DNA from: an uncultured Clostridia bacterium
Lineage (GTDB): Bacteria; Bacillota; Clostridia; Saccharofermentanales; Saccharofermentanaceae
Assembly (NCBI GenBank): GCA_946611435.1
Contig: CAMODL010000001.1
Span: forward strand, 80,818 to 144,817
Length of the DNA: 64,000 nt
Direction of reading: 5' to 3'
In this document: positions 12,640 to 40,246 of the stretch, in pieces
How the letters are laid out: each line of letters opens with the position of its first letter
Numbering within the stretch: the first letter of the stretch is position 1
Position numbers and translations under genes: made by a program
The notes under the pieces: model-generated
What the model was told of the DNA's origin: nothing
Database searches by the model: none
What the model saw: only the letters and a program-made list of their open reading frames with translations

Positions 12640-12645
12640 ATAATT

Positions 12646-12669: not shown

Positions 12670-12749
12670 CAAAAGCAAGATCATCACCATAAACAATGAC
12701 AGATGATGGTAAAGGCGCATAAGCAAGACAGCAGGAAAGGAGAGGCGTT

Positions 12750-13211
12750 ATGGCAAGGTTGGTCGATGTCATCGAGATGATGATAAAGGACATGCTCGAT
12801 GAGAATAACGGGAGTGCCACGATCAGCAGGAGCGTGCTCGCAGAGAAGGCGAATTGTGTTCCGTCGCAGGTTACGTATGTGCTGTCGACCAGGTTCTCGA
12901 CCGGAAACGGTTATCTGGTCGAGAGCAGAAGAGGCGGCGGCGGACAGATCACTATTACGAGAGTTCAGCCGATGAACAGGGGCGATTATATAAGTTCGGT
13001 CATCAAGTCGGTCGAGAACGTTCTGACACAGGAGCAGGCGAGGACGCTTCTTACGAATACGGTGGCGTGCGGGGCGATCAGTTCCAGGGAGGCAACAGCG
13101 GTCATGGCGGCTGTGTCGGACAGGGCGCTCGCCAAGATAGACAGCGATATCAGATCGGTAGTAAGGGCTGACATCTTCAAGAATACGATGTTGGCATTGA
13201 TGATGGATTAA
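12750..13211 (+). CDS. ctsR: Class III stress-gene repressor CtsR
   Basis: 153 aa. It has the winged-HTH with the Gly-rich loop ESRRGGGGQITI and sits first in a ctsR-mcsA-mcsB-clpC arrangement. Confidence 0.9.
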   Translation: MARLVDVIEMMIKDMLDENNGSATISRSVLAEKANCVPSQVTYVLSTRFSTGNGYLVESRRGGGGQITITRVQPMNRGDYISSVIKSVENVLTQEQARTLLTNTVACGAISSREATAVMAAVSDRALAKIDSDIRSVVRADIFKNTMLALMMD

Positions 13212-13232
13212 GAGAGGAGAGGAGAAGAGATT

Positions 13233-13931: not shown

Positions 13932-13932
13932 C

Positions 13933-17570: not shown

Positions 17571-17601
17571 AGGTGTAAAACAACAGTCTTTTCACAAACA
17601 T

Positions 17602-17639
17602 AAACGATCGGGTCTTATATCGGATCCGATCGTTTTTTA
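17602..17639 (+). terminator. Intrinsic terminator after clpC
   Basis: AAACGATCGG...CCGATCGTTT stem followed by TTTT. Confidence 0.75.
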
Positions 17640-17781
17640 TTCATTTATAGTTGATATTATCCGAATGAGAAAAGGATTATTCAAGTTTTTTTGTCTAAAA
17701 GCGTCAAAACAAAATCTAAAGACATTTTTAGTGATTCTGTATAGAATAATAGCAGTTCACTTTATATGGAGGTAAATTGAA

Positions 17782-18144
17782 ATGCCCAAAGCAAAGAAGA
17801 CAGAAGCTGCTGAGAAGACAGCAGAAGTAAAAGTAACACCCGTAGTAGAGGCTAAGAAGGCTGAAGAGAAGAAGGTTGCTGCTCCTGCAGCTGCTGCAAA
17901 GAAGCCCGCTGCAAAGAAGGCTCCCGCAAAGAAGCCCGCTGCTAAGAAGCCTGCTGCAAAGAAGACAGCTGCTAAGAAGCCTGCTGCTAAGAAGCTCGGC
18001 AAGATCATCTTCGAGATCGATGGTCAGCAGATCGACTTCAAGGCTATCGAGAAGAAGGCTGCTAAGCTCGGCGGTGACGTTTATGTTGTTGCTGCTGAGA
18101 AGAAGATCTACGATGCAGAAGGAAAGTCTGTAGAGCTCTTCTAA
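17782..18144 (+). CDS. Lys/Ala-rich histone-H1-like repeat protein with a small globular C-terminal domain
   Basis: SD GGAGGT upstream. The N-terminal half contains AAKKPAAKK repeats. The C-terminal roughly 50 aa (KIIFEIDGQQIDFKAIEKKAAKLGGDVYVVAAEKKIYDAEGKSVELF) is non-repetitive. A strong terminator lies downstream. Confidence 0.7.
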   Translation: MPKAKKTEAAEKTAEVKVTPVVEAKKAEEKKVAAPAAAAKKPAAKKAPAKKPAAKKPAAKKTAAKKPAAKKLGKIIFEIDGQQIDFKAIEKKAAKLGGDVYVVAAEKKIYDAEGKSVELF

Positions 18145-18166: not shown

Positions 18167-18200
18167 AAGACCGCTTCAGCGATGAAGCGGTCTTTTTATT
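18167..18200 (+). terminator. Intrinsic terminator
   Basis: AAGACCGCTTC-AGCGAT-GAAGCGGTCTT followed by TTTATTTT. Confidence 0.8.
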
Positions 18201-18382
18201 TTCAATTACATAGATGTATATCTATGCAACACGGATGAGAGCCCGCAGACTCAATATCGACGGCTGTCTATCTAAAATTTAAATGACTAAAATCCTCTTG
18301 TACAAAGGCGTGCAATCGCTGTAAAATAGCTATGTACGACTGAACGTGCGTAATAGCATGTGACTTATGTGAGGTTAAATAT

Positions 18383-27394: not shown

Positions 27395-28312
27395 ATGGCA
27401 GATATCGCGATCATCGGAGCAGGAACGGCAGGATTAACGGCAGCGATCTATGCATGTCGCGCCGGAATGGATACAGTGATCTTCGAGGGCGAGGCTTACG
27501 GCGGGCAGATAATAAACACGCCCGAGATCGTCAACTATCCCGGTATCGCGAATATCTCCGGATTCGACTTTGCGACGGGGCTATATGAACAGGCAACCGC
27601 ATTGGGTGCCCGTCTCGAATTCGATCGTGTAAACTCGATCACGGGATCTGCGGATAACGGGTTCACACTCACGGGTGAATACGGTACAACAGTCGAAGCA
27701 AAGGCCCTTATAATCGCGACCGGTGCTTCACACCGTAAGCTTGGCATCGCGTCGGAAGACAGCCTGGTCGGCAAGGGGATATCTTACTGTGCCACATGTG
27801 ACGGTTCGTTCTTCAAGGACAAGGATGTAGCTGTCGTCGGCGGAGGCAACACTGCTCTCGAAGATGCCGAGTACCTGGCCGGGATATGTAATAAGGTCTA
27901 TCTCATTCACCGGAGAGACGAATTCCGCGGTGACAAGGCTAACGTGGATCGCCTTCTTGCTTCTCCCGCTGTCGAGCCTTTGATGTCTTATACCGTTAAG
28001 GAGCTCAAGAGTGAAGAAGGAAAGCTCAGGGGGCTGACACTCGCGAGTACAAAGGGTGAGGGTGATCTTGATATAGATGTAAGCGCGCTGTTTATCGCCG
28101 TAGGTCAGATCCCTTCATCGGATCTTGTTCGAGAGCTTGTTGATATCGATCCTTCCGGGTATATCGTTGCAGGTGAGGACTGCACAACTTCGGGGCGTGG
28201 GATCTTCGTAGCGGGAGATGTCAGAACGAAGGACTTAAGGCAACTTACGACAGCTGCTTCTGACGGCGCCGTTGCAGCTACCAAGGCATGTGAGTTTATA
28301 AGATCTATGTAG
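27395..28312 (+). CDS. trxB: Thioredoxin-disulfide reductase
   Basis: FAD motif IIGAGTAGLTAA, redox-active CATCDG, NADPH motif VVGGGNTALEDA. I prefer the ATG at 27395, 8 nt after AAGGAG, over the GTG at 27386 in the ORF track. Confidence 0.9.
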   Translation: MADIAIIGAGTAGLTAAIYACRAGMDTVIFEGEAYGGQIINTPEIVNYPGIANISGFDFATGLYEQATALGARLEFDRVNSITGSADNGFTLTGEYGTTVEAKALIIATGASHRKLGIASEDSLVGKGISYCATCDGSFFKDKDVAVVGGGNTALEDAEYLAGICNKVYLIHRRDEFRGDKANVDRLLASPAVEPLMSYTVKELKSEEGKLRGLTLASTKGEGDLDIDVSALFIAVGQIPSSDLVRELVDIDPSGYIVAGEDCTTSGRGIFVAGDVRTKDLRQLTTAASDGAVAATKACEFIRSM

Positions 28313-28374
28313 TCATACATCCCACGTTTTGATATCATTGAGTCATAACACTTCAAAACGAGGGGGTAATAGTT

Positions 28375-29142
28375 ATGAATTGTGTTCAATGCGGCAATCC
28401 GCTTCCGGACGGTGCAGTAGTATGCAATAACTGCGGTGCTCCGACAGGTGTTCCCGTACAGCCTCAATTCCAGAGTGCACCGCCGCCGATGGGACAGCCT
28501 GTTCCTGCTCCGATGCCGGGACAGCCTTATATGCAGCCCATGTATCAGCCGGCAGCGCCTGCCATCCAGATGACACCAAGCATGGTACTCAGGATATGCG
28601 CTATCGCTACTGCGGTGATCTATATCATTCTCGGTATCGTTCACGGCAACATGAAGCAGGCAGATCTGTTTGCACCTCATTACTTCGGTTCTGACCTGAT
28701 CTTCTGGCTGGGCATCTTCCCGACGATCCTGTTTGGTCTTCTCATTATCAAGGATCGTAACTTCGATCTGGTAGCATCCATCGGTGCATTTGCTCCGGTA
28801 CTCTATATCACCTTCAGAACATTTAAGGATATCGAAAAGTTCAAGGAGTTCCTCGCAGCTACTTCTGATGTAATGAACAATATCCTTGTTCCCGGGGTAG
28901 CCGGTGTACTCCTTATCATTGTATGTCTCCGTGACGGAGCCCTGGCGCGTCTCTTCTGCAATATAATCGCTGCGATCGAAGGATGGCAGCTGGTAGCCAG
29001 CATGTTCGCTCTGTTCTATTACTTTGGTGTAGACGACACGAGCTTCATGAGACTCGGATCTTTTATGGATATGCTCTTCAACCTGTCTATCATCTTTATT
29101 GCAATGGCATTTAAGATGGAGCGGGATCAAAGCAGGGGCTGA
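28375..29142 (+). CDS. Zinc-ribbon / Pro-Gln-rich / multi-TM membrane protein
   Basis: The N-terminus is MNCVQCGNPLPDGAVVCNNCG. A P/Q-rich linker follows, then about five hydrophobic segments. Confidence 0.7.
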   Translation: MNCVQCGNPLPDGAVVCNNCGAPTGVPVQPQFQSAPPPMGQPVPAPMPGQPYMQPMYQPAAPAIQMTPSMVLRICAIATAVIYIILGIVHGNMKQADLFAPHYFGSDLIFWLGIFPTILFGLLIIKDRNFDLVASIGAFAPVLYITFRTFKDIEKFKEFLAATSDVMNNILVPGVAGVLLIIVCLRDGALARLFCNIIAAIEGWQLVASMFALFYYFGVDDTSFMRLGSFMDMLFNLSIIFIAMAFKMERDQSRG

Positions 29143-29172
29143 TCCGATAGGATAATCAACGTATAGACTAAG

Positions 29173-29208
29173 CCCGCCGGTACTTTTTTGAGGAACCGGC
29201 GGGTTTTG
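29173..29208 (+). terminator. Intrinsic terminator
   Basis: CCCGCCGGT...ACCGGCGGG stem followed by TTTTG. Confidence 0.75.
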
Positions 29209-29324
29209 TAATCTGTTGATCCTTCGGCTGTCCCGGGTATCATCCTCATTTTCCCGGGTAAGTTTTGTTTTGGGACAAATGGTGATAGAATAGTGAGGCT
29301 TATTTAAACACGGAGGATACTTCA

Positions 29325-30557
29325 ATGAGTAAGAATGTTTTCGATACGCTGGAAGAGAGAGGATACTTCTCGCAGGCAACACATAAGGAGGAGATCTACG
29401 ATCTGCTCAGCAAGCCCGGTGTATCTTTCTATATAGGATTTGATCCGACGGCAGACAGCCTTCACGTAGGACACTTTGTCCAGATGATGGTAATGAGCCA
29501 TATGCAGAAGGCAGGGCACAGACCTATTGCACTTATGGGCGGCGGAACCGGAATGATCGGAGACCCGACCGGCAGAACAGACATGAGACAGATGATGACG
29601 GTAGAGACTATCGACCATAATGTCGAGTGCTTCAAGAAGCAGATGGGCAAAGTTGTCGACTTCTCTGACGGCAAGGCGATCATCGTCAATAACGCAGACT
29701 GGCTCAGAGACCTCAACTACATCGAGTTCCTAAGAGAGATCGGTCCGCACTTCTCGGTAAACAAGATGCTCACTGCCGAGTGCTACAAGCAGCGTCTCGA
29801 GAAGGGTCTGTCCTTCCTGGAGTTCAACTATATGCTCATGCAGAGCTACGACTTCTATTACCTCCATAAGAAGTATGACTGCTGCCTCGAGTTAGGCGGC
29901 GACGACCAGTGGTCGAATATCATCGGTGGCGTAGAACTGATCAGACGTAAAGATCAGGCACCTGCATATGGTCTTACATTTACACTCCTTACGAACAGTG
30001 AGGGTAAGAAGATGGGTAAGACTGCCAAGGGTGCTGTCTGGCTCGATCCGAACAAGACTTCCGTCTTCGATTTCTATCAGTACTGGCGTAATATCGACGA
30101 TGCTGATGTCATCAAGTGCATGAAGCTCCTGACATTCCTTGAGATGGATGAGATCAATGAATATGCCAAACTCAAGGATTCAGCCATCAACGAGGCAAAG
30201 AAGAGACTTGCATATGAAGTCACCAAGATCGTGCACGGTGAAGAGCAGGCAGATATCGCCAAGAAGACGACCGAGGATATATACGAGAATCACGGACGTT
30301 CCGAGGATATGAAGACGACAGAGATCAGTTCTTCCGATATCGCAGCAGGTCTTCAGATCGCTGACGTTCTCGTTACCGCGGGTCTTATGAAGTCAAAGGG
30401 TGAGGCAAGAAGAATGATCCAGCAGAAGGGTGTATATCTGAACGATGTTGCTGTCGAGGATCAGTTCTATAATCTGGCGGAGTCTGACTTCGATAAGGAC
30501 GGCGAGGCTATCATTCGTAAGGGCAAGAAGAATTATCACAGATTAAAGCTCGTATAA
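29325..30557 (+). CDS. tyrS: Tyrosine--tRNA ligase
   Basis: 410 aa. It has the HIGH-type motif (DSLHVGHF), KMSKS-type motif (KMGKT) and a C-terminal S4-like domain. Confidence 0.92.
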
Positions 30558-30590
30558 GTCATGACCGAGCATTAGAAAAATAGTTATCGG

Positions 30591-30622
30591 GAGACCGTCT
30601 CATCTGTTGGGGCGGTCTTTTG
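30591..30622 (+). terminator. Intrinsic terminator after tyrS
   Basis: GAGACCGTC...GGCGGTCTT stem followed by TTG. Confidence 0.65.
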
Positions 30623-30638
30623 CATGGGATCCAGCTTC

Positions 30639-30833
30639 TTGTCGCAAAGATCCCATTCTCGAAGTTTTGAGACAAGTTTTACTTTGAATTCTTGTCGTAA
30701 ATGTATCGAAAAGTCTCACATGCGATGATTTCTCGCGATAAACATGTCGTAATCTTAAACAATCAACTGAATTACGACAAAAAAAACATCTATTAATCGT
30801 CGCAGATGAGCGAAAATGAGAGTTTTACGACAA
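30639..30833. repeat. Dispersed 9-mer TTGTCGTAA / TTACGACAA motif copies
   Basis: TTGTCGCAA at 30639-30647. TTGTCGTAA at 30692-30700. TGTCGTAAT at 30745-30753. TTACGACAA at 30772-30780 and at 30825-30833. The copies at 30745 and 30771 form a 9-bp inverted repeat with a 17-nt spacer. Confidence 0.75.
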
Positions 30834-31001
30834 GCCGAAGCCGCCGGGTGTCATGCTCAGTTCTTATCTCAGGTGTGCATCCTGCTGCTCGAAATCGGTG
30901 TAACCGGAGCAAATCTCTCAAATTGAGAAAACAGCAAGACAACATCAGTGAAGAATGACAATCAGAGCGAATTGAATAATTGTAATAACCTAACACCATG
31001 C

Positions 31002-31098
31002 AAGTTGTCATGTTCAAAAGTCCCTCAAAGCACTGAAAATGCTGCATTCCTTTCCTGAAGTTGTCATACTTGTCATATTAAAGTTGTCAGTTGACAAG
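31002..31098. repeat. Four AAGTTGTCA-type motif copies, ending in the palindrome TTGTCA-GT-TGACAA
   Basis: AAGTTGTCA at 31002-31010, 31058-31066 and 31081-31089, and CTTGTCA at 31069-31075. The palindrome lies at 31084-31097. Confidence 0.75.
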
Positions 31099-31119
31099 TG
31101 TGTTTTTATCACATAGATT
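31091..31119 (+). promoter_or_regulatory. Putative promoter of the first XRE-TM gene, with the -35 box inside the palindrome
   Basis: TTGACA (31091-31096), a 17-nt spacer, then TAGATT (31114-31119). Confidence 0.4.
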
Positions 31120-31150
31120 CAACTTAAATATACGTATGGAGGATATAGTC

Positions 31151-31717
31151 TTGTCAGGTGTAAAGATTAAAGAATATAGAGAAAAAATGAATTTCTCACA
31201 GAGAGATCTGGCAGGGCTTCTTGGTGTTAGCGTTCGTTCTGTTGCAAGGTGGGAACGGAATATCAGTAAACCCCATCCTGATGAGATGAAAAAGATTACA
31301 AAAATTACGGGGATCACGGAGGACGAGCTGCTTAGATCTGATGATACATCGTATGAATCTAAGAAAACGGTTTTGGATGAGATAGCAGACGGAGTTGGTA
31401 ATCTCGTAACCGGACAAGACATCATAAATGAATCACTGAATATAAATCATAATGAGTTGGTAAAAGAACTCCAAGCACAGAATGAGCAGTTACTTTCTAT
31501 CATCGATTCGTACAAAGCTGCTTTGGATTCAAGTAGGAATGATCTTCGTCAAAAGAGAATAAGGACGATAACAATATTGATTACATGTCTATTAATCCTG
31601 ATATTGATTTTTGGAACATGGCTTTATTGGAGAAATCACGGTTTTGACGGAAGGGTCATTGAAGGATCAGCTGAATTAGGGACACCGTCGTACAATCAAG
31701 TCGATGATGGACAATAA
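31151..31717 (+). CDS. Membrane-anchored XRE-family HTH regulator (HTH, coiled coil, single TM, short external tail), paralog 1
   Basis: The HTH is IKEYREKMNFSQRDLAGLLGVSVRSVARWERN and the TM is ITILITCLLILILIFGTWLYW. The likely start is TTG at 31151, 8 nt after GGAGG. The ORF track starts further upstream at 31091. Confidence 0.75.
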   Translation: MSGVKIKEYREKMNFSQRDLAGLLGVSVRSVARWERNISKPHPDEMKKITKITGITEDELLRSDDTSYESKKTVLDEIADGVGNLVTGQDIINESLNINHNELVKELQAQNEQLLSIIDSYKAALDSSRNDLRQKRIRTITILITCLLILILIFGTWLYWRNHGFDGRVIEGSAELGTPSYNQVDDGQ

Positions 31718-31735
31718 AAACGGAGGTATAAACCC

Positions 31736-32332
31736 ATGAAGAAAGTATTAGCAACATTATTGACAATATCGGTTATATTTTGCGTTTTGGGGATACCCGA
31801 CTCTTCGTGCAGAGCTTCCGAGTCTGAATTCAGCCTCATTGAGTATCTCGAGACACATGATATAAACAGTTATTCCGAGTTTAGAGAAGTTATTGAATCA
31901 AATTGTCCTTATTCGAAAACTGAAGATAGTATAGACTCTGACGATATCACATATTTCAGCATAGAGATAGATTATGAGGATATGACTGTATCAGTGACAA
32001 CAATGGGAGATGCATCGCTTGATAGATCACAGGAAGCAAGTAACAGCGCCTCGAAGACATATTATGCTTCGAACGGGCTTCCTATATTCACAATTCATGT
32101 AGATGGCTCTTTTATCTATATGGCAGGTTCTTGTAATGCAACATCTGCTAGTGGTTCTTTCAACAGAGCGGCACTAAGCACATGGACCAGTAATCCGACC
32201 ATATCTTCAGGAAATATAACCGCAAGCAAAGCTTATGTGCGTATATATGGAATAGCTTCAAGTAATGGTCAGAGCAAATCATATACACTAACACTTACAT
32301 GTGACAGTACAGGACACTTCACAAGCTATTGA
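31736..32332 (+). CDS. Secreted protein of unknown function
   Basis: SD ACGGAGG upstream. Signal peptide MKKVLATLLTISVIFCVLG. 198 aa. The C-terminal half is Ser/Thr/Gly-rich. Confidence 0.65.
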   Translation: MKKVLATLLTISVIFCVLGIPDSSCRASESEFSLIEYLETHDINSYSEFREVIESNCPYSKTEDSIDSDDITYFSIEIDYEDMTVSVTTMGDASLDRSQEASNSASKTYYASNGLPIFTIHVDGSFIYMAGSCNATSASGSFNRAALSTWTSNPTISSGNITASKAYVRIYGIASSNGQSKSYTLTLTCDSTGHFTSY

Positions 32333-32363
32333 CAGACAGATAAGAACAAGGAGGTACAGACCC

Positions 32364-32480
32364 ATGGGCTACATATCAGGCTGTATCGACATAAAAGAAG
32401 ACTCGCACTGCAATACGAGTCTTCGGGTCAGATACAGCAAGGCGCAGGAGCCTCAACACCATCTGAGCACATTTACTTAA
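32364..32480 (+). CDS. Candidate small ORF (38 aa), absent from the ORF track
   Basis: AAGGAGG lies 7 nt upstream of the ATG. The peptide is MGYISGCIDIKEDSHCNTSLRVRYSKAQEPQHHLSTFT. I have no homology evidence. Confidence 0.35.
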   Translation: MGYISGCIDIKEDSHCNTSLRVRYSKAQEPQHHLSTFT

Positions 32481-32545
32481 TAACACAGAATGGCTGTTGA
32501 GGCAAGGACTGAATGAGCGATATTGAATTGCAGAAAGAGTTCATT

Positions 32546-32953
32546 ATGTTAAAGAAAAAACTATTATCCGTGGTCGTTGCATCAGTTATGCTTGTCGCCA
32601 TGGCTTTCTCTGTAAGTGCAGCTTCAAGAGTGACTGGAACATATTCTACTTCAGGCGGTAATATGTCTTACAACGGTTCGCAGACAGTTAGCGGCGCGTG
32701 TATCTACTATTATTTGCGACTGAATTCCGTGTCGTTTAATGGGCTACCGTCAAACACTTTCCCAAGCAATGCATATGTGCATCTTTCAATCTGTAAGAAC
32801 AAGTCTGAAAAAGCAAGCAAGAATTTCTACAGTTGTTATGGACATACGGGTTCGTATTCACAGAGTGGCGGTACATATCAGTTAGGTTTATCTTCAAATT
32901 CAACTTTGGGTTTAACTGTCGGAGCAACATGGAATGCGCAGGAAATACTGTAA
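32546..32953 (+). CDS. Small secreted protein of unknown function
   Basis: Signal peptide MLKKKLLSVVVASVMLVAMAFSVSAAS, from the internal ATG at 32546. The ORF track starts at 32513. Confidence 0.6.
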   Translation: MLKKKLLSVVVASVMLVAMAFSVSAASRVTGTYSTSGGNMSYNGSQTVSGACIYYYLRLNSVSFNGLPSNTFPSNAYVHLSICKNKSEKASKNFYSCYGHTGSYSQSGGTYQLGLSSNSTLGLTVGATWNAQEIL

Positions 32954-33992
32954 AACCGTTGTATTATTGATCGTTTTGTTGACCATGTGTTCATGCAAAA
33001 ACGGTAAAAACGTCGAGGATGATTCTTCATCCTCGACAGTTTCTGTTGCTCAGACGATAGAGGACATCGAGCAGAGCAGCATAACGGATATTGGGCAGGT
33101 GCGTATCCTCAACGTTAACGGAAATGAAGATGAGATACCAAGCAGCGTATCTGTGTACAGAATCCGGATATGTGACAATTCAGATGATAACCGTCGATGC
33201 AGTATCAGTAACATCGAAGACGGAATACAGGTAACCCAATATACTCTTCCGTTTTATACCGGAGGTGCTTACGAGAATAACAACGATATACCATATGAAA
33301 CTATAAAACAGGAAGATCTTCGGTGTTTTACAGATTCTATTCATGTCGGCAATTCGGAAGAAGGACAAATAACCATTGAATCAGAATATGAATCTGTATA
33401 TCTGATATTCCGATTGCCATATTATTCCGATTTTATCAGTTTGACATTTGGAGATGATGGCGCGGAAATAGCTACCGGTGTTGAGTTATCCTGCGTGTTT
33501 GTCAGACAGTCAGTTGAAGATCTTCCAATCGGAATGCCATACATATATCAAACTGATACGAATTACGATTATGTATGGAATGAAGATATAAGGGGTATTG
33601 CACACCCTGAAGCATCAGTATCTCCCCAGTATTATGTTAGTGACTCAATATACATAGTTGATAATCTGGAGTACGATCTTGAACCGGTCGAATCGGATGT
33701 CGGAATCATACCTTTTGAAGAGTGTGTTGACGGGATCAATGAATCCATTAACCGAATGAATGTGGACAATCACCTATATGATATCACTCCATATGCGGCC
33801 GAGTTATGTTATGTTCCGATATTATCTTTCGATTCCGGAGGAGTTGTAACTGATGAGAACGGACTGAAAGTATACTATCTTGTTCCTTGCTGGGTAGTTT
33901 ATTATCAGAACAATATAGACGGAAACTCTAATACCAGATTTGCCGGAACTGTAATTGTAAATGCCTCTACTGGGCAGATGATGATGGAGTAG
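32934..33992 (+). CDS. Lipoprotein of unknown function with a PepSY-like C-terminal signature
   Basis: Lipobox LLTMCSCKNG. The C-terminus (LVPCWVVYY...GTVIVNASTGQ) resembles PepSY-type beta-sheet ends, which is an inference. It overlaps the preceding gene by 20 nt. Confidence 0.65.
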   Translation: MRRKYCKTVVLLIVLLTMCSCKNGKNVEDDSSSSTVSVAQTIEDIEQSSITDIGQVRILNVNGNEDEIPSSVSVYRIRICDNSDDNRRCSISNIEDGIQVTQYTLPFYTGGAYENNNDIPYETIKQEDLRCFTDSIHVGNSEEGQITIESEYESVYLIFRLPYYSDFISLTFGDDGAEIATGVELSCVFVRQSVEDLPIGMPYIYQTDTNYDYVWNEDIRGIAHPEASVSPQYYVSDSIYIVDNLEYDLEPVESDVGIIPFEECVDGINESINRMNVDNHLYDITPYAAELCYVPILSFDSGGVVTDENGLKVYYLVPCWVVYYQNNIDGNSNTRFAGTVIVNASTGQMMME

Positions 33993-33997
33993 GATGA

Positions 33998-36163
33998 ATG
34001 ATCAAGAACTGTTGTAAGAAGGGAATCTCTCTGTTGATCGTATCAGCGTTAGCTGTTCCTTTAATCTCGTGTTCCAAAAAGGATGAGGAATCCTGGGTAA
34101 AGATCAATGAACGGCGAGGATATAAAGTCCATGATTGTATTATCGATAATGACTGTACGTATATTACCGAGATAGACAACGTGTTCAATTATGATGATCA
34201 TTATTATGTCTGTGTATCGTATCATAATGACTCTGATGAAGGCATTTCAGATGAATTGATCAGGTCTGTGTATGTGTTAGATTCTGAAGATAATGTTGTG
34301 GATACTATCAGGCTGTCGGATAACGAGCTGCCTCAGTGTATTGTAGATGATAAATATGTCCGTGTTGACAACAAGAATAAATATGAATACTCCCTGTCAG
34401 ACGGGTCGTTGATCAATACTGTCGAAATATCTGCTTCAGGTGCCGTGTCTGCTGTTCCTACAACAAATGGATACATCGTTTTCGCTCGTGAAAGGATAGT
34501 TAAATATGATAACAATGATAATGAGATTGGATTTGTTACATTAACTGACTCTGTTTATCCGAGTGCTATGTCATCTTATTATGAAGACAACGGTAAAGAA
34601 TACATTGTTATTCCCGATACGTTTTACGACAATTATTATGAAGTTGACTTTGATTCGGATATCATAAATCTTGTTTTATCGACAAGTGAAATAAGCGAGA
34701 AACTCGGCATAAGCAATGGTAATCATATTATTGACGGGACGGCAGACTATAAAGTTGACATCAGTAATAAAACCATAGAGATCCTGGCGGATTTTGATTA
34801 TGTGAATATAAAACCTGAAGGCAGCGGATGCCAGTCAACAACTTATTATCCTTTTGATGATAATAGCTTTGCAGTCGGGTACGGTTACTATGGCGGGAGT
34901 ATAGAGATTCAGATCATGGAGTATGACAGCAGTATCGACTATAGCAATATGGAAGAGATCGAGATCGGCGGCTTTGACCTGTCATACGATCTTCCTCTCA
35001 AATGGGCTATTTATAAATTCAATACTTCCCAAGATCGATACAGGGTTATCACTACCGATTATACTAATATATTTAATTGGATGAATGGATCCGAGGCTCA
35101 GGTTGTTACGGCAGAAATGATCTCGTACTTCAATGACGGGAATGCTCCTGATATCTTCTACGGTTCGTTCTTTGACTATCGTAATCTATATAATTCGGGA
35201 TTAGTAATAGACATGGCTCCTTACTGTATGGGGTACAAAGCATTTGAATCGGGTTTTATGCCGGAAAACATCGAGAAGCTTATGTTGAATGACGATGTTT
35301 GCTACAGTGTATTTGCAGCTTTTTACTTAAGCGGATATTGGGGTAAGGCGGATATCTTTAATACAAATGACGTTTCCATTTACGATATGCAGGCTCTGTC
35401 AGAAGAGACCGGAATACTTCCGATGGCGGGAGAGTATTCTCGAAATATCGCTGATTCTGTCTTAAGATATTCTGTCGATATGCGTGTTGATGATCCGTAT
35501 TCCGAGCATGTGTATGGTACCGAAGAGTTGGTCGATACTTTGGAATATGCAATTGAATACGGAATACCGACCGGATCGACTCCCGGGGAATTGCCAAACT
35601 TTGACTTGGTACGCGCGGATCAGTATCTATCATGCTTAAGCTTTATGAATAGTATTTATGACTTGAATTATTACGTAAGAGGTTCCGAAGGCGGATTTGT
35701 ATATATCGGTTATCCGTCAATCGACGGGTCAGTTCGACTGGCAAATCCTGTCGGACAGGTCAGTATATCATCTAGTTCAGAGAGACCTGACATATGCTGG
35801 CAGTTTATCTCAATGCTGTTTGATGAAGATGTCCAAAGGATTATTGCGACAAATCAGAGCATTCCCGTATCAAGACAGGTGCTTGATGAATTGAGTGAAT
35901 CAACAAGTCATCCGGAGACAGTTGATCCTGAATCTCCGTTTTATTCTTATGTACACAGATTGCCTCCTGTCGATGAAGTTACAGTCGAGCTTTTTAATGA
36001 ATCTGTTGAATCTGTTAACACTTTGCTTTCTTATGATTGGGGTGTTTATAACATTATCTGCGAAGAAGTTGATTCATATGATCTGCAGGGTAAAACCATA
36101 CAGGACATAGCTGAATCACTGCAATCAAGAATCGATCTGTATGTATCGGAAAACTACCGGTAG
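33998..36163 (+). CDS. Large lipoprotein whose C-terminal half resembles family-1 extracellular solute-binding proteins (tentative)
   Basis: Lipobox VPLISCSKK. Segments such as GNAPDIFYGSFFDYRNLYNSGLVIDMAPY and the C-terminal ...GKTIQDIAESLQSRIDLYVSENY resemble large Firmicutes SBPs. No ABC permease or ATPase gene is nearby. Confidence 0.65.
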   Translation: MIKNCCKKGISLLIVSALAVPLISCSKKDEESWVKINERRGYKVHDCIIDNDCTYITEIDNVFNYDDHYYVCVSYHNDSDEGISDELIRSVYVLDSEDNVVDTIRLSDNELPQCIVDDKYVRVDNKNKYEYSLSDGSLINTVEISASGAVSAVPTTNGYIVFARERIVKYDNNDNEIGFVTLTDSVYPSAMSSYYEDNGKEYIVIPDTFYDNYYEVDFDSDIINLVLSTSEISEKLGISNGNHIIDGTADYKVDISNKTIEILADFDYVNIKPEGSGCQSTTYYPFDDNSFAVGYGYYGGSIEIQIMEYDSSIDYSNMEEIEIGGFDLSYDLPLKWAIYKFNTSQDRYRVITTDYTNIFNWMNGSEAQVVTAEMISYFNDGNAPDIFYGSFFDYRNLYNSGLVIDMAPYCMGYKAFESGFMPENIEKLMLNDDVCYSVFAAFYLSGYWGKADIFNTNDVSIYDMQALSEETGILPMAGEYSRNIADSVLRYSVDMRVDDPYSEHVYGTEELVDTLEYAIEYGIPTGSTPGELPNFDLVRADQYLSCLSFMNSIYDLNYYVRGSEGGFVYIGYPSIDGSVRLANPVGQVSISSSSERPDICWQFISMLFDEDVQRIIATNQSIPVSRQVLDELSESTSHPETVDPESPFYSYVHRLPPVDEVTVELFNESVESVNTLLSYDWGVYNIICEEVDSYDLQGKTIQDIAESLQSRIDLYVSENYR

Positions 36164-36192
36164 ATTACCAGAATTAGTGGGAGTAAACGACA

Positions 36193-36476
36193 GTGTTCAG
36201 GAGTAAAGCACATCAAAACACTATTGTTATCCTTCTGACGATCATACTGTCAGGGATTCATCTGACAGGATGTTCGAAGGGTGAGAATGAACGGAAGATC
36301 CGTTATATTGACGAGAATACTCCGTGGTATGAGTGTGAAACGATTACGTACGATCTGTGTATGTGATGATCAATGAGGAGCTGGAGACGTATGATCTCCA
36401 GGGCAAACCGATAGAGGACATTGCCGATGTGCTGTATTCCAAGCTGAGCCTGTATGCGAGTGAGCATTATTCATAG
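36193..36476 (+). pseudogene. Internally deleted remnant of a paralog of the 33998..36163 lipoprotein
   Basis: The GTG at 36193 gives a lipoprotein leader (...LLTIILSGIHLTGCSKGENERK...) that stops at 36364-36366. The overlapping frame from 36366 reads MINEELETYDLQGKPIEDIADVLYSKLSLYASEHYS*. That aligns with the last 36 aa of the 721-aa protein (...EEVDSYDLQGKTIQDIAESLQSRIDLYVSENYR*). Confidence 0.6.
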
Positions 36477-36480
36477 AAGA

Positions 36481-36548
36481 ACATGTCACATATAAAAAAC
36501 CGGTGGAAGCTTGAATTAATTGAGTTTGCCCAGGCAGATGTGACATGT
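36481..36548. repeat. Perfect 11-bp inverted repeat ACATGTCACAT / ATGTGACATGT with a 46-nt spacer
   Basis: The arms lie at 36481-36491 and 36538-36548. It sits between the remnant and the second XRE-TM gene. Confidence 0.8.
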
Positions 36549-36625
36549 GTCGCAAATAAATGTCACTTGACGAAATACAGTTTTTTATTCAGACTGAGAA
36601 TATACCTATAAGGAGGATCAGGGTC

Positions 36626-37312
36626 TTGTTCGGAGAGCAGCTTAAATCTTATAGAATGAAGAATGGGTATTCTCAGAAGAGAATGGCTGAGATCCTCGGT
36701 GTCAGTTCCCGCACGATAATAAGGTGGGAGCTGAATTGTACTGAACCCGATCAGGAAGAGATAAAAAGGATCTCATCCAAGCTAAATCTGAACGAATGTC
36801 GCTTTTTGTTTGACGAAGGCCGATCTGTCTCTTTTGTGTCCTCTCTGTCAAACAGTAAAGATCTTGCCAAGATAAACGATAATATCGATAAACTTATAAG
36901 CAGACAGGATGCGCTCAGCGAGACACTTGCTTCATACTGTAGTGAGCAGGCAAATATTATCCGTGAACTGAAAGATCAGAACCAAAAGCTTATGGATAAG
37001 CTTGAAGAGCAGGCAGCTGTTATATCTTCCTGTGAGATCGCTCTTGATATGAATGAGTTCGGTAAAGGGCGTAAGAAGGCCCACAAGAAAGCACTTGCTA
37101 TATGCGGTTCAGTTGCTGCCGCCGTGATCCTTCTGGTTGGTGGGGTAGTATTAAATAAAAATGTGAGCCTGGGGAACAAAGAAGATGAATCCTCCAATAT
37201 GAGTCTTTACGAGTTTAAGCAGATATTGAATAACGGCTATACAGGAGAGATCATCGAAGGCCCCGCGATAATGGGGACGCCCACATATTTTGAGATAGAC
37301 GATGGAATGTGA
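36626..37312 (+). CDS. Membrane-anchored XRE-family HTH regulator, paralog 2
   Basis: The HTH is LKSYRMKNGYSQKRMAEILGVSSRTIIRWELN and the TM is ALAICGSVAAAVILLVGGVVL. The likely start is TTG at 36626, 9 nt after AAGGAGG. The ORF track starts at 36560. Confidence 0.75.
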   Translation: MFGEQLKSYRMKNGYSQKRMAEILGVSSRTIIRWELNCTEPDQEEIKRISSKLNLNECRFLFDEGRSVSFVSSLSNSKDLAKINDNIDKLISRQDALSETLASYCSEQANIIRELKDQNQKLMDKLEEQAAVISSCEIALDMNEFGKGRKKAHKKALAICGSVAAAVILLVGGVVLNKNVSLGNKEDESSNMSLYEFKQILNNGYTGEIIEGPAIMGTPTYFEIDDGM

Positions 37313-37322
37313 GAATTATTAA

Positions 37323-37358
37323 CACCCCGAACCTCGGATTTAATGAAGGTTCGGGGTG
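37323..37358. terminator. Bidirectional terminator between convergent genes
   Basis: CACCCCGAACC...GGTTCGGGGTG stem. Confidence 0.75.
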
Positions 37359-37396
37359 ATATTTGGGAAGAGTTGAGAATAATCTCAGTTTAATTA

Positions 37397-38554
37397 TTAT
37401 GTCTCACTGTTCCTATCCTCGGGGACTGTTTCAGCTTCAATAGCTGCTACGGGAGTTTCCGCTGACGCCTCATTCTCTTCTGCGGAATTTGCTGCGGCTG
37501 CCTTTGCGGCCTTCTTGTGCTTCTTGTGTACTATAACTACGATGATCACGATGATGATGACCGGAACGAGTCCTGCGAGTACGAGGAGGATGTAGGGAAC
37601 TACGCCTGCGAAGTCGACTGCGAGGTTACGTGCACCTTTTCTGATATCCTTGATGGTATCGTTCAAGCTTCCGCGCATCTCTTCTCTGAAGGAAGGATCA
37701 TCTTCGGGAGTAGGTGTGGGGGTTACTTCTTCCTCTTCCTCGACTGTCTCTCTTACTGTCAGAGTGAGTGTACCGAAGGAAGAGAGGTTGGAGAGGATCC
37801 TTGCCTGAGACTCATAGCTCTCGATCTCATAGCTCAGCTGTGTGAGACGTGTCTGGAGAGTGAGGATATAATCGATATTATCTGTATTGGCAAGAAGCTC
37901 CATAAGCGTGTTCTGCTCCGTGCGGAGAGCCTCGATATGGCTCTCGATATCGGAGTACTGAAGTGTAACGTCCTCGGTGCTCTCATTCTGTGACAGTACT
38001 GTGCAGTATCCGCCGAAAGAATTGATCAGCTCATCAAGATATTCGGAAGGAACGCGGATAACAAATACGCCGGTCCTCAGGTCTTTCTCTTCTCCTGTTC
38101 CGTATTCGGAAGAACTCTCTACATAACCTCCGAGTGCGACTGTCTGTGCACGGACTGACATAACAACATCCGTATACCGGAGCGTCTCGACTTCCATCGT
38201 AACTCGGCGGATCAGCATCCTTGTGTTATACGTGATATTAACGTCATTAGTGTTATATCCGTCCGGAGTGCTGCCGCTATTGATATAATCGGACATCTCA
38301 TCGGTTACGGCGTTGTGCATATCGGCATCATCGGCACCGTAATATGCGTCCTCTTCCCAATATGCTTCAGTCTCATATGCAGGATACTCGGCCGATACAT
38401 ATTCTTCCAACTCGGGAATAGTCGTTTCCTCGGTCGTGTGTCTGTCGCCACTCCTGCTGTTCTTGTCGTCGTCCTTGGATGATCCGCATGCTGCCAGACC
38501 CATGATGAGTCCGGTTACGAGCACCAAAGATACTATAGGTATTAACTTTTTCAT
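37397..38554 (-). CDS. DUF4349-domain lipoprotein with a C-terminal TM anchor
   Basis: Lipobox MGLAACGSS. The central region (MLIRRVTMEVETLRYTDVVMSVRAQTVALGGYVESS...VIRVPSEYLDELINSFGG...LQYSDIESHIEALRTEQNTLMELL) is typical of DUF4349. The C-terminal TM is VVPYILLVLAGLVPVIIIVIIVVIV. Confidence 0.8.
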   Translation of the reverse strand: MKKLIPIVSLVLVTGLIMGLAACGSSKDDDKNSRSGDRHTTEETTIPELEEYVSAEYPAYETEAYWEEDAYYGADDADMHNAVTDEMSDYINSGSTPDGYNTNDVNITYNTRMLIRRVTMEVETLRYTDVVMSVRAQTVALGGYVESSSEYGTGEEKDLRTGVFVIRVPSEYLDELINSFGGYCTVLSQNESTEDVTLQYSDIESHIEALRTEQNTLMELLANTDNIDYILTLQTRLTQLSYEIESYESQARILSNLSSFGTLTLTVRETVEEEEEVTPTPTPEDDPSFREEMRGSLNDTIKDIRKGARNLAVDFAGVVPYILLVLAGLVPVIIIVIIVVIVHKKHKKAAKAAAANSAEENEASAETPVAAIEAETVPEDRNSET

Positions 38555-38970
38555 TTCTGTGTCCTCCTTACCCTGTCGTTGTCATTCGGGTCTTATGCCT
38601 TTAATACAATCCGGGAATGAGGAATGTTGCAGACGATTATATTTTTTCGAAAAAAATATTTCTCGAAAAAGATCACCTCCCGATGCAACAAAACATTACC
38701 GGCAAATGTATATAGGGTAAGAACGTGAAGCGGGGAGGTATCAGGCAGGCAAAAGAAACGCATACGGCAAGTCCTTATGATATGTGTTATATTATTAGCG
38801 ATCACCTTAAAGGAGATACGGGATTGATAACACTTAGCATCAACAACAGGATAAGCCGGTTGATCACGTGGATATCTGATCTGGCATATCGTGCCGGGAT
38901 AAGATTCACGGATCTGACAGACGGAACATCCGGATCCGAGTATGAGGAGTTCAGCGATGCCGGGAACGGT

Positions 38971-39477
38971 ATGGGTCAGGGCTCTTACATACCGGATGAC
39001 GTGGCCGATAAGGCTGCGGAGCTGATGGACAAGTTCGGTAATACGATCATCAGATTCGCTTATACTTATGTCCACAATATGCAGGACGCAGAAGATATCC
39101 TGCAGGATGTTCTTATATCCTATATGCGTAAAGCGCCCGTATTCGAGAACGATGGTCACGCAAAGGCGTGGCTCCTGACGGTGACAGCCAATACCTCCAA
39201 GAACAGGATCAAATATAACAGCTACCGTTCTCACGACGAGCTCAATGAGACTCTCGTGGCACAGCACAAAGAGGATCTGTCCTTTATCTGGGAAGCAGTG
39301 AGTTCGCTTCCGGAGGACAGCAGAGAGATCTTCCATCTGTTCTATCAGGAAGATCTTACGACTGCACAGATAGCGCAGGTCCTCGGCGTGAAGGAATCGA
39401 CGATCAGGTCCAAGCTGAAGCGCGGACGTGACAAGCTGAAGACTGTATTGAAGGAGGTGTATGACTTTGGAGAATAA
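38971..39477 (+). CDS. ECF-type sigma-70 family RNA polymerase sigma factor
   Basis: Region 2 (AEDILQDVLISYM...KAWLLTVTANTSKNRI) and region 4 (EIFHLFYQEDLTTAQIAQVLGVKESTIRSKLKRGRDKL) are present. The start is uncertain: ATG 38971 gives about 168 aa, ATG 39025 is an alternative, and the ORF-track GTG at 38725 is probably too long. Confidence 0.8.
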   Translation: MGQGSYIPDDVADKAAELMDKFGNTIIRFAYTYVHNMQDAEDILQDVLISYMRKAPVFENDGHAKAWLLTVTANTSKNRIKYNSYRSHDELNETLVAQHKEDLSFIWEAVSSLPEDSREIFHLFYQEDLTTAQIAQVLGVKESTIRSKLKRGRDKLKTVLKEVYDFGE

Positions 39478-40246
39478 GTACAAAGAGATCATGAACCATG
39501 TTCAGGTCGACGAAGCCATGCGCGCCCGTATCCTTGAGAACCTTAGAGCGGAAGCTGCAGGGGATTATAACCCGCGGGCAGAAGTTACTTCCATTGAAGC
39601 TGATAGAGCAGCCCGCGAGAAGGGCAAGAGACGTGCAATGATGCTAAGACTCGTACCTGCAATTGCGGCCGCAGTCGCGGTCCTTGTAGCGGGTGTCCTG
39701 ATATTCAGCCGCACCGATGATAAGAAGGATGCTCTGACAGAAGATGCTGATCGCTCAAGGGGCACTTATACGTACAGCCATAACGGTATAGCTGATGAGG
39801 TAGATGCTGCGGCGGGCATAGAAGAGCTGGAGATAGACAGCTATCTATCGGAAGTGACAACGATCGCGGGACGGGACGATAATATTGTTCCTGAAGAGAC
39901 TGAAGCTGAAGAAGCAGAAGAGCCTGTCAGTAACGAGACAGCGAGTGCCGTAAACGGGTTTACGGTCATTACTTACAAGGCAGGCGCCGAGTCTTACACA
40001 TCGATCGACTCCGGACTGATAAGCGATCTGCTGACCTTTATGGCGGATGTCAGACGTCTGCCTTCATCCGATACGGGATCAGCCGACATAGAGTATCTCT
40101 TCGTTCTGTCAGGCGAAGACAACTGTGACGAATGTGTCATCGGGTTCATGGAAGGGTATATCTGGATAGACGGTATATTCTATGAATATCCGACTGCTCT
40201 CGACTATGGAGAGTATCTGGCTTCCATGGTCAGAGGATCAAGGTGA
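39461..40246 (+). CDS. Putative anti-sigma factor (single TM, extracytoplasmic domain)
   Basis: It overlaps the sigma gene by 17 nt. A short N-terminal helix (VDEAMRARILENL) is followed by the TM MLRLVPAIAAAVAVLVAGVLIF. Confidence 0.6.
   Translation: MTLENKYKEIMNHVQVDEAMRARILENLRAEAAGDYNPRAEVTSIEADRAAREKGKRRAMMLRLVPAIAAAVAVLVAGVLIFSRTDDKKDALTEDADRSRGTYTYSHNGIADEVDAAAGIEELEIDSYLSEVTTIAGRDDNIVPEETEAEEAEEPVSNETASAVNGFTVITYKAGAESYTSIDSGLISDLLTFMADVRRLPSSDTGSADIEYLFVLSGEDNCDECVIGFMEGYIWIDGIFYEYPTALDYGEYLASMVRGSR

Follow-up and report, generated by a model that had tools for sequence, protein, structure and literature searches.

What signal could reach a transcription regulator that is tethered to the membrane and exposes only a few dozen residues outside the cell? 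This question is raised by a 64,000-nucleotide stretch of contig CAMODL010000001.1 (assembly GCA_946611435.1, positions 80,818 to 144,817 of the forward strand; hereafter the window) from an uncultured Clostridia bacterium. Between tyrS and a convergent DUF4349 gene, this DNA carries an AT-rich island that encodes two regulators, XRE1 and XRE2, together with four secreted proteins, sec198, sec146, lipo352 and lipo721. A reading made from the letters of the window without database searches (the sequence-only reading) had proposed that a neighbouring lipoprotein or small secreted protein docks on, or cleaves, an external tail shared by the two regulators. The explanation that we consider best, and hold with moderate confidence, is a composite one: XRE1 and XRE2 would be membrane-tethered autoregulators with the external tail (exo-tail) as their input, and a co-encoded protein would be the most plausible partner of that tail. 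Related loci from other assemblies and contigs are referred to below by L numbers.

Two membrane-anchored regulators and their conserved tail

The regulators and the DNA in front of them are laid out as follows (aa, amino acids; HTH, helix-turn-helix; TM, transmembrane).

31151..31717, + strand: XRE1, 188 aa; HTH_3 match in Pfam (E 8e-15); TTG start 8 nt after GGAGG (31138-31142)
Layout of XRE1: HTH aa 1-62; DNLVTGQ box aa 74-95; coiled coil with ELxxQNxxL aa 96-133; TM helix aa 140-158 (31568-31624); acidic exo-tail aa 161-188 (31631-31714)
36626..37312, + strand: XRE2, 228 aa, monocistronic; HTH_3 match in Pfam (E 1e-10); TTG start 9 nt after GGAGG (36612-36616)
Layout of XRE2: design as in XRE1, plus an extra 45-aa external spacer; TM helix aa 158-176 (37097-37153); tail motif aa 202-228 (37229-37309)
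31004..31097, + strand: XRE1 operator region; GTTGTCA direct repeats at 31004, 31060 and 31083, TTGTCA at 31071, palindrome TTGTCA-GT-TGACAA at 31084-31097
31091..31119, + strand: sigma-70-type promoter of the XRE1 operon; TTGACA, 17 nt, TAGATT; 10 of 12 positions, the best match in the region
36561..36571, + strand: XRE2 operator core TGTCACTTGAC, which contains a -35-like TTGACG
~36543-36556, + strand: inverted pair GTGACAtgTGTCGC upstream of XRE2

XRE1 and XRE2 are paralogs from end to end (BLASTP E 6e-27, 28% identity), and HTH_3, found in both of them, is the sole family match among the island proteins in Pfam, NCBIfam, PADLOC and PHROGs. Each regulator has a single hydrophobic segment, with 19-residue Kyte-Doolittle values of 2.7 and 2.6 and a next-best window of 0.6-0.7. 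Because residues rich in lysine and arginine precede this segment and an acidic tail follows it, the topology is N-in/C-out, with the HTH in the cytoplasm and the tail outside; the extracytoplasmic part amounts to 27-52 residues. The two tails are identical at 13 of 25 residues by direct count and share the end motif GTP(S/T)Y..(I/V)DDG; the exo-tail peptide reads NHGFDGRVIEGSAELGTPSYNQVDDGQ. In the coiled coil, E106, N111 and L114 of the ELxxQNxxL segment are invariant across the regulator family. The pair of paralogs, each with an XRE-type HTH, a coiled coil, one TM helix and a tail, had been described in the sequence-only reading along with the shared coiled-coil motif and the TTG starts 8-9 nt after GGAGG, and all of this stood up to the searches. 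The TTG start of XRE1 is further supported by a duplicate of its 5' end in L009, which has ATG at the same codon. Family members also begin at the position of this TTG codon, and the alternative ATG of XRE2 at 36560 would fall within the promoter/operator.

The regulators belong to a small family. A search of 5.8 billion proteins yielded 12 clusters at 90% identity, and an exhaustive profile search of 1.84 billion representatives yielded about 16 full-length clusters at 50% identity, amid tens of thousands of sequences that match the HTH only. When 185,579 species' genomes were scanned with a tail pattern built from the four closer sequences, only two loci were returned, both from Clostridiales metagenome-assembled genomes, labelled yak rumen and sheep reticulum. 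Scanning of metagenomes added seven further loci with an XRE-tail regulator. The tail motif is present in every locus recovered, with the consensus W...N.G..G..IEG.A..GTPSYFEIDDG, and hardly changes between proteins whose overall identity is only 35-40%. Family tails are 25-31 aa long and all acidic, with a net charge of -2 to -6.

Outside the HTH, for which the nearest solved domains are those of SinR, P22 C2 and CylR2 (CylR2 E ~1e-8), the proteins resemble nothing in the collections searched. The C-terminal 122 aa have no significant relative among PDB sequences, match nothing in Pfam or NCBIfam, and gave no tblastn match in phage or plasmid collections. A peptide sensor of the RRNPP/Rgg type was rejected on the same PDB result, together with the lack of a TPR-type match. 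We found no paper in the literature that describes these proteins. The family is small, undescribed and drawn from uncultured gut and rumen Clostridia.

The conservation of the tail in homologs, one of the conditions that the sequence-only reading had set for its hypothesis, was therefore upheld down to 35-40% overall identity, with the qualification that other parts of the protein are better conserved. In the family, mean pairwise identity is 0.48 for the HTH, 0.48 for a cytoplasmic box that the sequence-only reading had not noted (I-S-D-G-V-D-N-L-V-T-G-Q; the DNLVTGQ box), 0.33 for the tail, 0.25 for the coiled coil and 0.13 for the linker. The DNLVTGQ box is thus conserved like the HTH itself.

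The DNA in front of the two genes points to a common operator. Allowing S for G or C, the core TGTCASTTGAC occurs at exactly two sites in the 64 kb, both about 65 nt before the start codon of a regulator, where a calculation from base composition gives ~0.06 exact matches expected by chance. The putative operator sequence for the regulator HTH is TTGTCAGTTGACAA. The -35 element of the XRE1 promoter lies inside the palindrome TTGTCA-GT-TGACAA, and across the family the motif TGTCA(G/C)TTGA(C/A) is placed over the -35 element. The same core is found at the same offset in L008, L018 and L003-like promoters and slightly further upstream in L019, and homologous loci of other lineages have extra TGTCAC/GTGACA palindromes upstream. 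Since the operator core is conserved over the regulator promoters at the same offset, autoregulation from the membrane is a reasonable proposition. That these proteins are membrane-tethered autoregulators of this operon is, we infer, far more secure than that the tail docks a partner.

Neighbours of the regulators in the window and in other loci

XRE1 heads a string of genes in the order XRE1, sec198, RNA leader, sec146, lipo352, lipo721. All of the protein-coding genes of the island, XRE2 included, lie on the + strand with the boundaries that the sequence-only reading had assigned to them. The four secreted proteins are encoded as follows.

31736..32332, + strand: sec198, secreted; 18 nt after the XRE1 stop codon, with a conserved ribosome-binding site in the gap
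32513..32953, + strand: sec146, small secreted protein rich in S, T and G; signal peptide from an internal Met at 32546
32934..33992, + strand: lipo352, lipoprotein-like signal peptide; conserved C-terminal ~100 aa (AELCY.P...P.WV.Y...NA.TG)
33998..36163, + strand: lipo721, lipoprotein (lipobox LISC); AlphaFold2 (AF2) model with pLDDT 84 and pTM 0.84

The most consistent neighbour of the regulator family is sec198. The protein consists of an N-terminal signal or anchor, an acidic segment of ~70 aa (isoelectric point, pI, 4.1) and a conserved basic domain of 97 aa with two Cys (pI 9.0 in the window), and it has no match in Pfam, NCBIfam, PHROG or PADLOC. Across six lineages, 30 columns and the two Cys are conserved, the former without variation, and the pI of the conserved domain stays at 8.6-9.5 among relatives, in contrast to the acidic tails of the regulators. 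In the window, L008, L020, L021, L024, L027 and L028, the gene after the regulator is sec198-like, and remnants of such a gene are seen in L019. Wherever its start is clear, the gap to the regulator is 1-18 nt (six loci, including L021, L024, L027 and L028; the start codon is unclear in the seventh). Because of this adjacency, its conservation and its complementary charge, sec198 is the best candidate for a partner of the tail, and it is a more consistent candidate than the lipoprotein resembling a solute-binding protein (SBP) that the sequence-only reading had stressed.

The gene order extends beyond sec198. In L027, where the regulator is 36% identical to XRE1 and the chromosomal context is different, the whole series is repeated: XRE, sec198, RNA, sec146, lipo352 and a gene of the lipo721 type (lipoA). 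The expectation that the neighbouring secreted genes would accompany the regulator in other genomes thus held in L027 and, for sec198-like genes, in the seven loci listed above, L027 and the window among them. A second expectation, that tail regulators would co-occur with SBP-like or PepSY-like lipoproteins, held in its first half: one or more large SBP-like lipoproteins are encoded in each XRE-tail locus whose flank extends to 3 kb or more. It did not hold in its second half, as the family of lipo352, the protein that had been called PepSY-like, is found beside a tail regulator in only about three lineages.

A different set of genes follows XRE-tail regulators in L019 (10423-16035), L020 (3882-9507), L028 (2232-5342) and L025 (409-1730). 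The order in this second module is a small secreted protein, an FtsX-like protein, an ABC ATPase, a MacB-like protein (MacB_PCD), a BspA-type leucine-rich-repeat lipoprotein and an SBP-like lipoprotein. It should also be noted that a 773-aa histidine kinase in L013 has local similarity to the FtsX-like proteins of this module.

Searches of Pfam, NCBIfam, PADLOC and PHROGs with the four secreted proteins gave no family of enzymes, transporters, mobility proteins or defence proteins; the sequence-only reading, too, had recognised no enzyme, transporter core or mobility gene. No transporter genes are present within 30.6-37.4 kb. An origin of the island in anti-phage defence, a prophage or a plasmid was rejected, with HTH matches being the only ones from PADLOC and PHROGs and no match of the regulator C-terminus in the phage or plasmid collections.

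Two descriptions of the lipoproteins had to be revised. For lipo352, the assignment to PepSY is not supported: none of seven family members (0/7) matched the PepSY hidden Markov model even at E<=10. The protein is an orphan at 90% clustering but has weak, consistent homologs in L013, L015, L017, L019 and L027 with a common C-terminal motif. A profile search of the PDB with lipo352 came back empty, and a single-sequence AF2 model (pLDDT 29) hints only at a C-terminal helix followed by three strands.

The 721-aa lipoprotein had been thought to contain an orphan SBP-like half. The AF2 model of lipo721 and Foldseek searches of the PDB instead indicate a complete sugar-type SBP fold at aa 319-720, after a propeller-like N-terminal domain. 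The closest match is CbpC (7x0o, E 5e-15, target-normalised TM-score 0.64), and MalE (3uor) and binders of xylo-oligosaccharide and lacto-N-tetraose are also matched. The region of aa 40-314 is all-beta and propeller-like, with matches to WD40/Kelch/PQQ propellers (E 1e-8, Foldseek against the BFVD viral library). The window protein has no Pfam match; SBP_bac_8 is found in a subfamily of its paralogs (781 and 779 aa), and SBP_bac_1 matches one homolog faintly. Twelve homologs of lipo721 were found in Clostridia metagenome-assembled genomes. Genes for an ABC importer permease or ATPase are absent from the window island and from L008, L009 and L027.

A strand of the pattern (Y/F)Y(E/K)(V/L/I)(D/N)(F/L) recurs in the propeller domain of lipoA proteins, for example as YYEVDFD or SYYEVNLDDG, and is found at 34634-34654 of the window (lipo721 aa 213-219). 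Its resemblance to the tail end SYFEIDDG, which would fit strand mimicry, was set aside, the match being too short and degenerate.

The small secreted protein sec146 belongs to a looser family of proteins rich in S, T and G, with a homolog beside agrBD in L015 (E 4e-9). In that locus (3471-18026), homologs of sec146, lipo352 and lipo721 lie between a complete agrBDCA-like quorum-sensing cassette and a toxin of 2468 aa with RHS/YD repeats. The toxin has CBM_2 and lectin domains, and a 150-aa gene is located downstream. This context hints that the triad may belong to loci of competition or surface interaction.

A candidate RNA leader and a recombining island

Between sec198 and sec146, the sequence-only reading had listed a candidate small open reading frame (smORF) of 38 aa. 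The DNA there is better described as encoding a structured RNA.

32349..32446, + strand: candidate structured RNA leader, a GGAGGUACAGACC(A/C)AUGG box followed by a three-tier hairpin; overlaps the smORF at 32364-32480
~32455-32506, + strand: second helix of the leader, with arms GCCUCAAC/GUUGAGGC, which covaries across loci
Copies of the leader: window 32349-32446; L008 5382-5479 and 8352-8449; L009 2538-2635; L019 949-1048; L020 3272-3370; L021 6709-6808; L026 2491-2589; L027 8614-8713

The intergenic DNA after sec198 is conserved across lineages at the nucleotide level. An open reading frame that begins at the leader ATG has 3 codons in L021, L027 and L028, 8 in L020, 16 in L008, 38 in the window and 58 in L026. 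Since its length varies from 3 to 58 codons while the nucleotide sequence and base pairing are conserved, the 38-aa smORF was rejected as a gene. The three tiers of the hairpin are GCUGUA/UACAGC, UUGAC/GUCAA and an inner stem that varies. Of the 24 pairs in the structure predicted by RNAalifold, 8 have compensatory changes, and 96.7% of cells are paired; none of 500 shuffles was as good (0/500), and sliding the partners against each other abolishes the pairing. A covariance model made from five sequences detects nine copies, two of which (L026 and L019) are outside the training set, with E ~1e-15. The inner stems of these two copies differ again and are nevertheless paired. No match was found in Rfam 15 at E<=1 within 28000-40000.

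Every copy of the leader is located 65-115 nt upstream of a gene for a small secreted protein, and in XRE-tail loci sec146 is always preceded by a copy. As read from the sequence, GUACAG in the 5' box can pair with CUGUAC in the 5' arm of the hairpin as an alternative to the main stem, suggesting a possible switch that depends on translation or on a factor. We consider the element at 32349-32446 a candidate new cis-regulatory RNA.

The island as a whole is bounded by two strong terminators and has a history of recombination, as three further features show.

30588..30622, + strand: tyrS intrinsic terminator, the left border; 15-bp hairpin followed by UUUU; -21.8 kcal/mol, z -5.0 against shuffles
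37323..37358, both strands: bidirectional terminator, the right border, common to the convergent DUF4349 gene; -23.6 (+) and -23.2 (-) kcal/mol, z -5.2 and -5.5
36193..36476, + strand: deletion scar; N-terminal lipoprotein fragment (36193-36354) joined to the last 39 codons (36358-36476) of a lost 709-aa paralog of lipo721

Both the AT-richness and the two bracketing terminators had been recognised from the sequence, and measurement agrees: GC content is 0.37-0.43 at 30.5-37.0 kb and 0.45-0.53 in both flanks, and the hairpins have z values of about -5 against shuffles. The island occupies the same site, between tyrS and the DUF4349 gene, in several assemblies of the same or closely related organisms, and its content varies.

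In L008 the order is XRE, sec198, a 122-aa gene, a 781-aa lipoprotein (SBP_bac_8), sec146, lipo352, lipo721, the 709-aa paralog, a 476-aa chimera, a 686-aa lipoprotein and XRE2. The 709-aa gene is missing in L009, and the window lacks this gene, the chimera and the 686-aa gene. Alignment by blastn of the window with L008 places the losses. Window 32338-36354 corresponds to L008 8341-12357 (99.7%), 36358-36476 to 14307-14425 (100%) and 36450-37500 to 18193-19243 (97%), and 36193-36354 (99.7% identical) corresponds to the DNA of L008 that lies just upstream of, and reaches into, the gene of the 709-aa paralog. The deletion junctions of the window are therefore at 36354/36358 and at 36450-36476, the latter within the conserved 3' ends of paralogous lipoprotein genes; recombination at this second place removed the regulator-like chimera and the 686-aa lipoprotein. 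The remnant of a second lipoprotein copy that had been suspected here was in this way confirmed against an intact strain. The N-terminal part of the scar (36193-36354; L008 12196-12357) is a fragment of yet another lipoprotein gene, with a signal peptide ending in LTGCSK and 33-40% identity to the N-termini of L003 lipoB proteins. In L008 this part is already in frame with the 709-aa gene, whose own signal peptide starts MRRIVLAIVG.

Identity to L008 is uneven along the island. The module of XRE1 and sec198 (30994-32506) is 74% identical, and the block of sec146, lipo352 and lipo721 (32338-36354) is 99.7% identical, so the island is a recombination mosaic. On the sequence evidence, this pattern points to recent recombination or allele replacement within the island, which appears to be modular, gaining and losing regulator/lipoprotein modules by recombination between paralog ends.

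The chimera is itself a product of recombination. In L008 (14607-16120) and L009 (6847-8360), an open reading frame of 471-476 aa encodes an HTH 86-89% identical to that of XRE1, a TM segment and a domain homologous to lipo352. Its 5' part is a 298-bp duplicate (97% identity, sharp borders) of window 31053-31350, which includes the promoter and operator of XRE1 along with its ribosome-binding site and the first 72 codons. This duplicate is joined in frame to a sec146-like 3' end, followed by a lipo352-like lipoprotein gene. The lipoprotein part keeps its own signal peptide with a lipobox (Met-Arg-Gln-Arg...LGAC) and a possible ribosome-binding site, and a free-standing ortholog of it exists in L019. 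The chimera thus represents the capture of the XRE1 promoter/operator for another lipoprotein module in L008 and L009, and therefore supports a role of the lipoproteins as outputs.

Several observations concern DNA at the edges of the island. About 430 bp between the tyrS terminator and the XRE1 operator (30623-31050) are apparently non-coding, with no supported open reading frame and no Rfam match. In strain L009 this segment is partly replaced, the match being 89.5% identical and broken at 30712/30799. Just beyond the right border (37397-40246) lie the convergent gene for a DUF4349 membrane lipoprotein, a sigma factor of the extracytoplasmic function (ECF) type (38725-39477) and an overlapping gene for a TM protein of 261 aa, which looks like the anti-sigma factor of this sigma factor. 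These three genes are core and were found in all strains. Upstream of tyrS, the window has one copy of a zinc-ribbon membrane protein gene (28375-29142), where L008 has two tandem paralogs (254 and 281 aa; 542-2271).

Readings of the tail and known systems

In the composite explanation that we favour, XRE1 and XRE2 would bind the palindrome as dimers from the membrane, autoregulate and control the operon of secreted proteins. The exo-tail would be the input, and its occupancy would be passed through the TM helix and the stalk to the geometry of the dimer or to DNA binding. The ligand of the tail would most plausibly be a co-encoded extracellular protein, with the basic two-Cys domain of sec198 as the prime candidate; the sec198 gene would be translationally coupled to the regulator gene. 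The primary sensor would less probably be lipo352 or a large lipoprotein of the beta-propeller and SBP type; these would rather be cargo under regulation or auxiliary binders. The RNA leader would add a second, post-transcriptional checkpoint before the sec146-lipoprotein genes. XRE-tail and sec198 could then be a Gram-positive, XRE-type counterpart of ToxR/ToxS and VtrA/VtrC, or could provide CylR1/CylR2-like feedback on the secreted product of the operon.

A number of findings weigh against this explanation. At the DNA end, the -10 element of XRE2 is poor, and it is position and conservation that suggest binding of the palindrome by the regulators. Since the tail (0.33) is less conserved than the DNLVTGQ box (0.48), the decisive input could be cytoplasmic. 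At the partner end, none of the neighbour families is found with the tail in every locus, several of the exceptional contigs being short: regulators in L003 and L026 lead straight to lipoB genes, that of L025 leads to an FtsX-like gene, and L018 has no sec198. The fusion of XRE, TM segment and a lipo352-like domain in L008 and L009 might have been taken as Rosetta-stone proof of docking; it was rejected as such, because it is a chimera that recombination assembled from three parts, with a lipobox signal peptide in its interior. Finally, the triad of sec146, lipo352 and lipo721 (lipoA) also exists without an XRE-tail regulator, beside an OmpR-type two-component system (L013), agrBDCA and an RHS toxin (L015) or BlaI/BlaR-like genes (L017). 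For this reason it is no less likely that the lipoproteins are outputs than that they are sensors.

The composite explanation can be sharpened into a specific proposal, which we offer tentatively as one possibility. XRE-tail and sec198 would together form a Gram-positive co-component receptor, in which the acidic 27-aa tail completes or clamps the basic two-Cys domain of sec198. Such a receptor would read either its own secreted protein, in an autocrine, quorum-like manner, or a ligand held by the complex, and its lipoprotein output would be gated again by the RNA leader. It would be an independent XRE analogue of ToxR/ToxS in anaerobic gut Firmicutes.

Somewhat more doubtful is an autonomous sensor, in which the acidic tail would directly sense a signal that is not encoded in the locus (cationic antimicrobial peptides, a metal ion such as Ca2+, or pH) with no protein partner, the neighbours being outputs only. 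Such a protein would resemble BcrR or the acidic loops of intramembrane-sensing kinases. It would account for a tail that is conserved whichever module follows, for the uniformly acidic tails and for the occurrence of the triad with other regulators. Moreover, the members in L018, L019, L020, L025 and L028 adjoin ABC transporters of the FtsX/MacB type, the usual partners in peptide detoxification. Against this reading, no transporter is encoded in the window island, a motif as specific as GTPSY points to something beyond charge, and the tight coupling of sec198 in most lineages would be left unexplained.

We regard as unlikely that the island is a competition locus of the bacteriocin type, with sec198 and sec146 as antagonistic proteins, lipoproteins or ABC transporters for self-protection, and the XRE proteins as local repressors or inducers, a reading which is compatible with feedback sensing of the product. 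The layout of sec198, an acidic pro-region and a basic domain, would suit such a role, as would the small Sec-dependent proteins that adjoin FtsX/MacB ABC genes in L019, L020 and L028, the lipoA and sec146 homologs placed between agrBDCA and the 2468-aa RHS toxin in L015, and the strain variability and mosaic identity of the island. Nevertheless, Pfam, NCBIfam, PADLOC and PHROGs gave no match to any family of bacteriocins, toxins or immunity proteins, a dedicated membrane protein resembling an immunity factor is absent from the window, and lipoproteins with an SBP fold are not a known type of immunity protein.

Least probable of all, and in our view improbable, is that the tail serves biogenesis or turnover only, through YidC-type insertion and topology or as a degron or site-1 cleavage site that releases the HTH, with the real signal arriving in the cytoplasm via the DNLVTGQ box and stalk. 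In favour of it, conservation is higher in this box than in the tail, insertase substrates typically have short, acidic tails that are translocated, and regulated proteolysis is a common fate of membrane-tethered regulators. Against it, no protease gene is present in or near any locus, EG.A..GTPSYFEIDDG is nearly identical at 35-40% overall identity, beyond any charge requirement, and the 45-aa spacer that XRE2 accommodates ahead of its motif speaks against a strict role in insertion.

How far the favoured explanation is new depends on the comparison with known systems. The sequence-only reading did not recognise the module as a described system. This is true of the family itself, which matches no described one, but not of the design. 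XRE1 and XRE2 combine a DNA-binding domain and a TM helix in one polypeptide, as do the transmembrane transcription regulators (TTRs) found to be widespread in a genome census that includes BreG, a membrane regulator of bacteriocin genes (PMC10269533). Co-components encoded by adjacent or overlapping genes are likewise known in Vibrio, as VtrA/VtrC and ToxR/ToxS (PMC9214523). With these systems the XRE-tail loci share a regulator whose DNA-binding domain lies in the cytoplasm and is linked by a single TM helix to a small ectodomain (PMC9214523). Also shared are a translationally coupled gene immediately downstream, for a beta-rich protein of ~150-200 aa that is secreted or anchored by its N-terminus, and the character of fast-evolving cassettes in accessory DNA. 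The differences are considerable. ToxR and VtrA have an OmpR-type winged helix, whereas XRE1 and XRE2 are of the XRE/HTH_3 type with no Trans_reg_C match; the ectodomain is ~27 aa in the XRE family versus ~90 aa; the XRE-tail hosts are Gram-positive-type Clostridia; and sec198 has no detectable similarity to ToxS or VtrC.

BcrR of Enterococcus faecalis, a membrane-bound one-component bacitracin sensor of the XRE type (PMC10269533, PMC3968067), is similar in having an N-terminal XRE-type HTH on a membrane anchor, and some members of the XRE-tail family adjoin ABC transporters (FtsX/MacB) as well. BcrR binds DNA from the membrane and controls adjacent genes, points on which XRE1 and XRE2 are probably alike. 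Unlike BcrR, which has four TM helices and senses within the membrane, XRE1 and XRE2 have one TM helix between a long coiled-coil stalk and an external tail. Sequence similarity to BcrR is confined to the HTH, and no operon of the bcrABD type, with an ABC transporter and undecaprenol kinase, is found beside XRE1 and XRE2 (30.6-37.4 kb). RodZ also has an N-terminal XRE-type HTH, a single TM helix and an external C-terminus. However, neither regulator matches DUF4115 or a RodZ model (Pfam and NCBIfam, E<=0.1), and both lie outside a core morphogenesis context, in an AT-rich, strain-variable island, as members of a family that is tiny and not universal. The regulators therefore fall outside the characterised RodZ and BcrR-like families, as the hypothesis of the sequence-only reading required.

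CylR1/CylR2 of Enterococcus faecalis pair an XRE-type HTH repressor with a membrane component and sense a secreted product of their own operon. There the two parts are separate proteins, whereas XRE1 and XRE2 have HTH and anchor in one chain, and sensing of an own product is what we hypothesise for the XRE family. Three-component sugar sensors are known in clostridia. In line with SBPs that act as co-sensors, lipo721 and its paralogs have a fold of the MalE/CbpC type and lie beside signal-transduction genes rather than permeases; the lipo721 type differs by an extra N-terminal, beta-propeller-like domain and by multiple paralogs per locus. Sugar-binding SBPs as extracytoplasmic co-sensors are a general concept (PMC9214523). 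What is new in the XRE-tail family is the very short, strongly patterned exo-tail, the XRE fold in a co-component-like gene arrangement, and the association with propeller and SBP lipoproteins and an RNA leader.

TTRs are common in censuses, yet few are understood, and almost none of these are from anaerobic gut or rumen Firmicutes. The family described here occurs rarely, and in uncultured gut and rumen Clostridia only, which limits its immediate impact, but it offers a clean minimal system. Nearly all external information must pass through a conserved peptide of 27 residues, and with a palindromic operator as the read-out this makes a tractable minimal case. The locus also yields a candidate new cis-regulatory RNA, and the island illustrates the way in which recombination between paralog ends reshuffles the surface-lipoprotein repertoires of uncultured rumen bacteria. 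Should the tail bind nothing, XRE1 and XRE2 would be one more case of local XRE regulators of hypothetical surface proteins. If a secreted partner does bind it, the co-component principle known from Vibrio would extend to another DNA-binding fold and another type of cell envelope.

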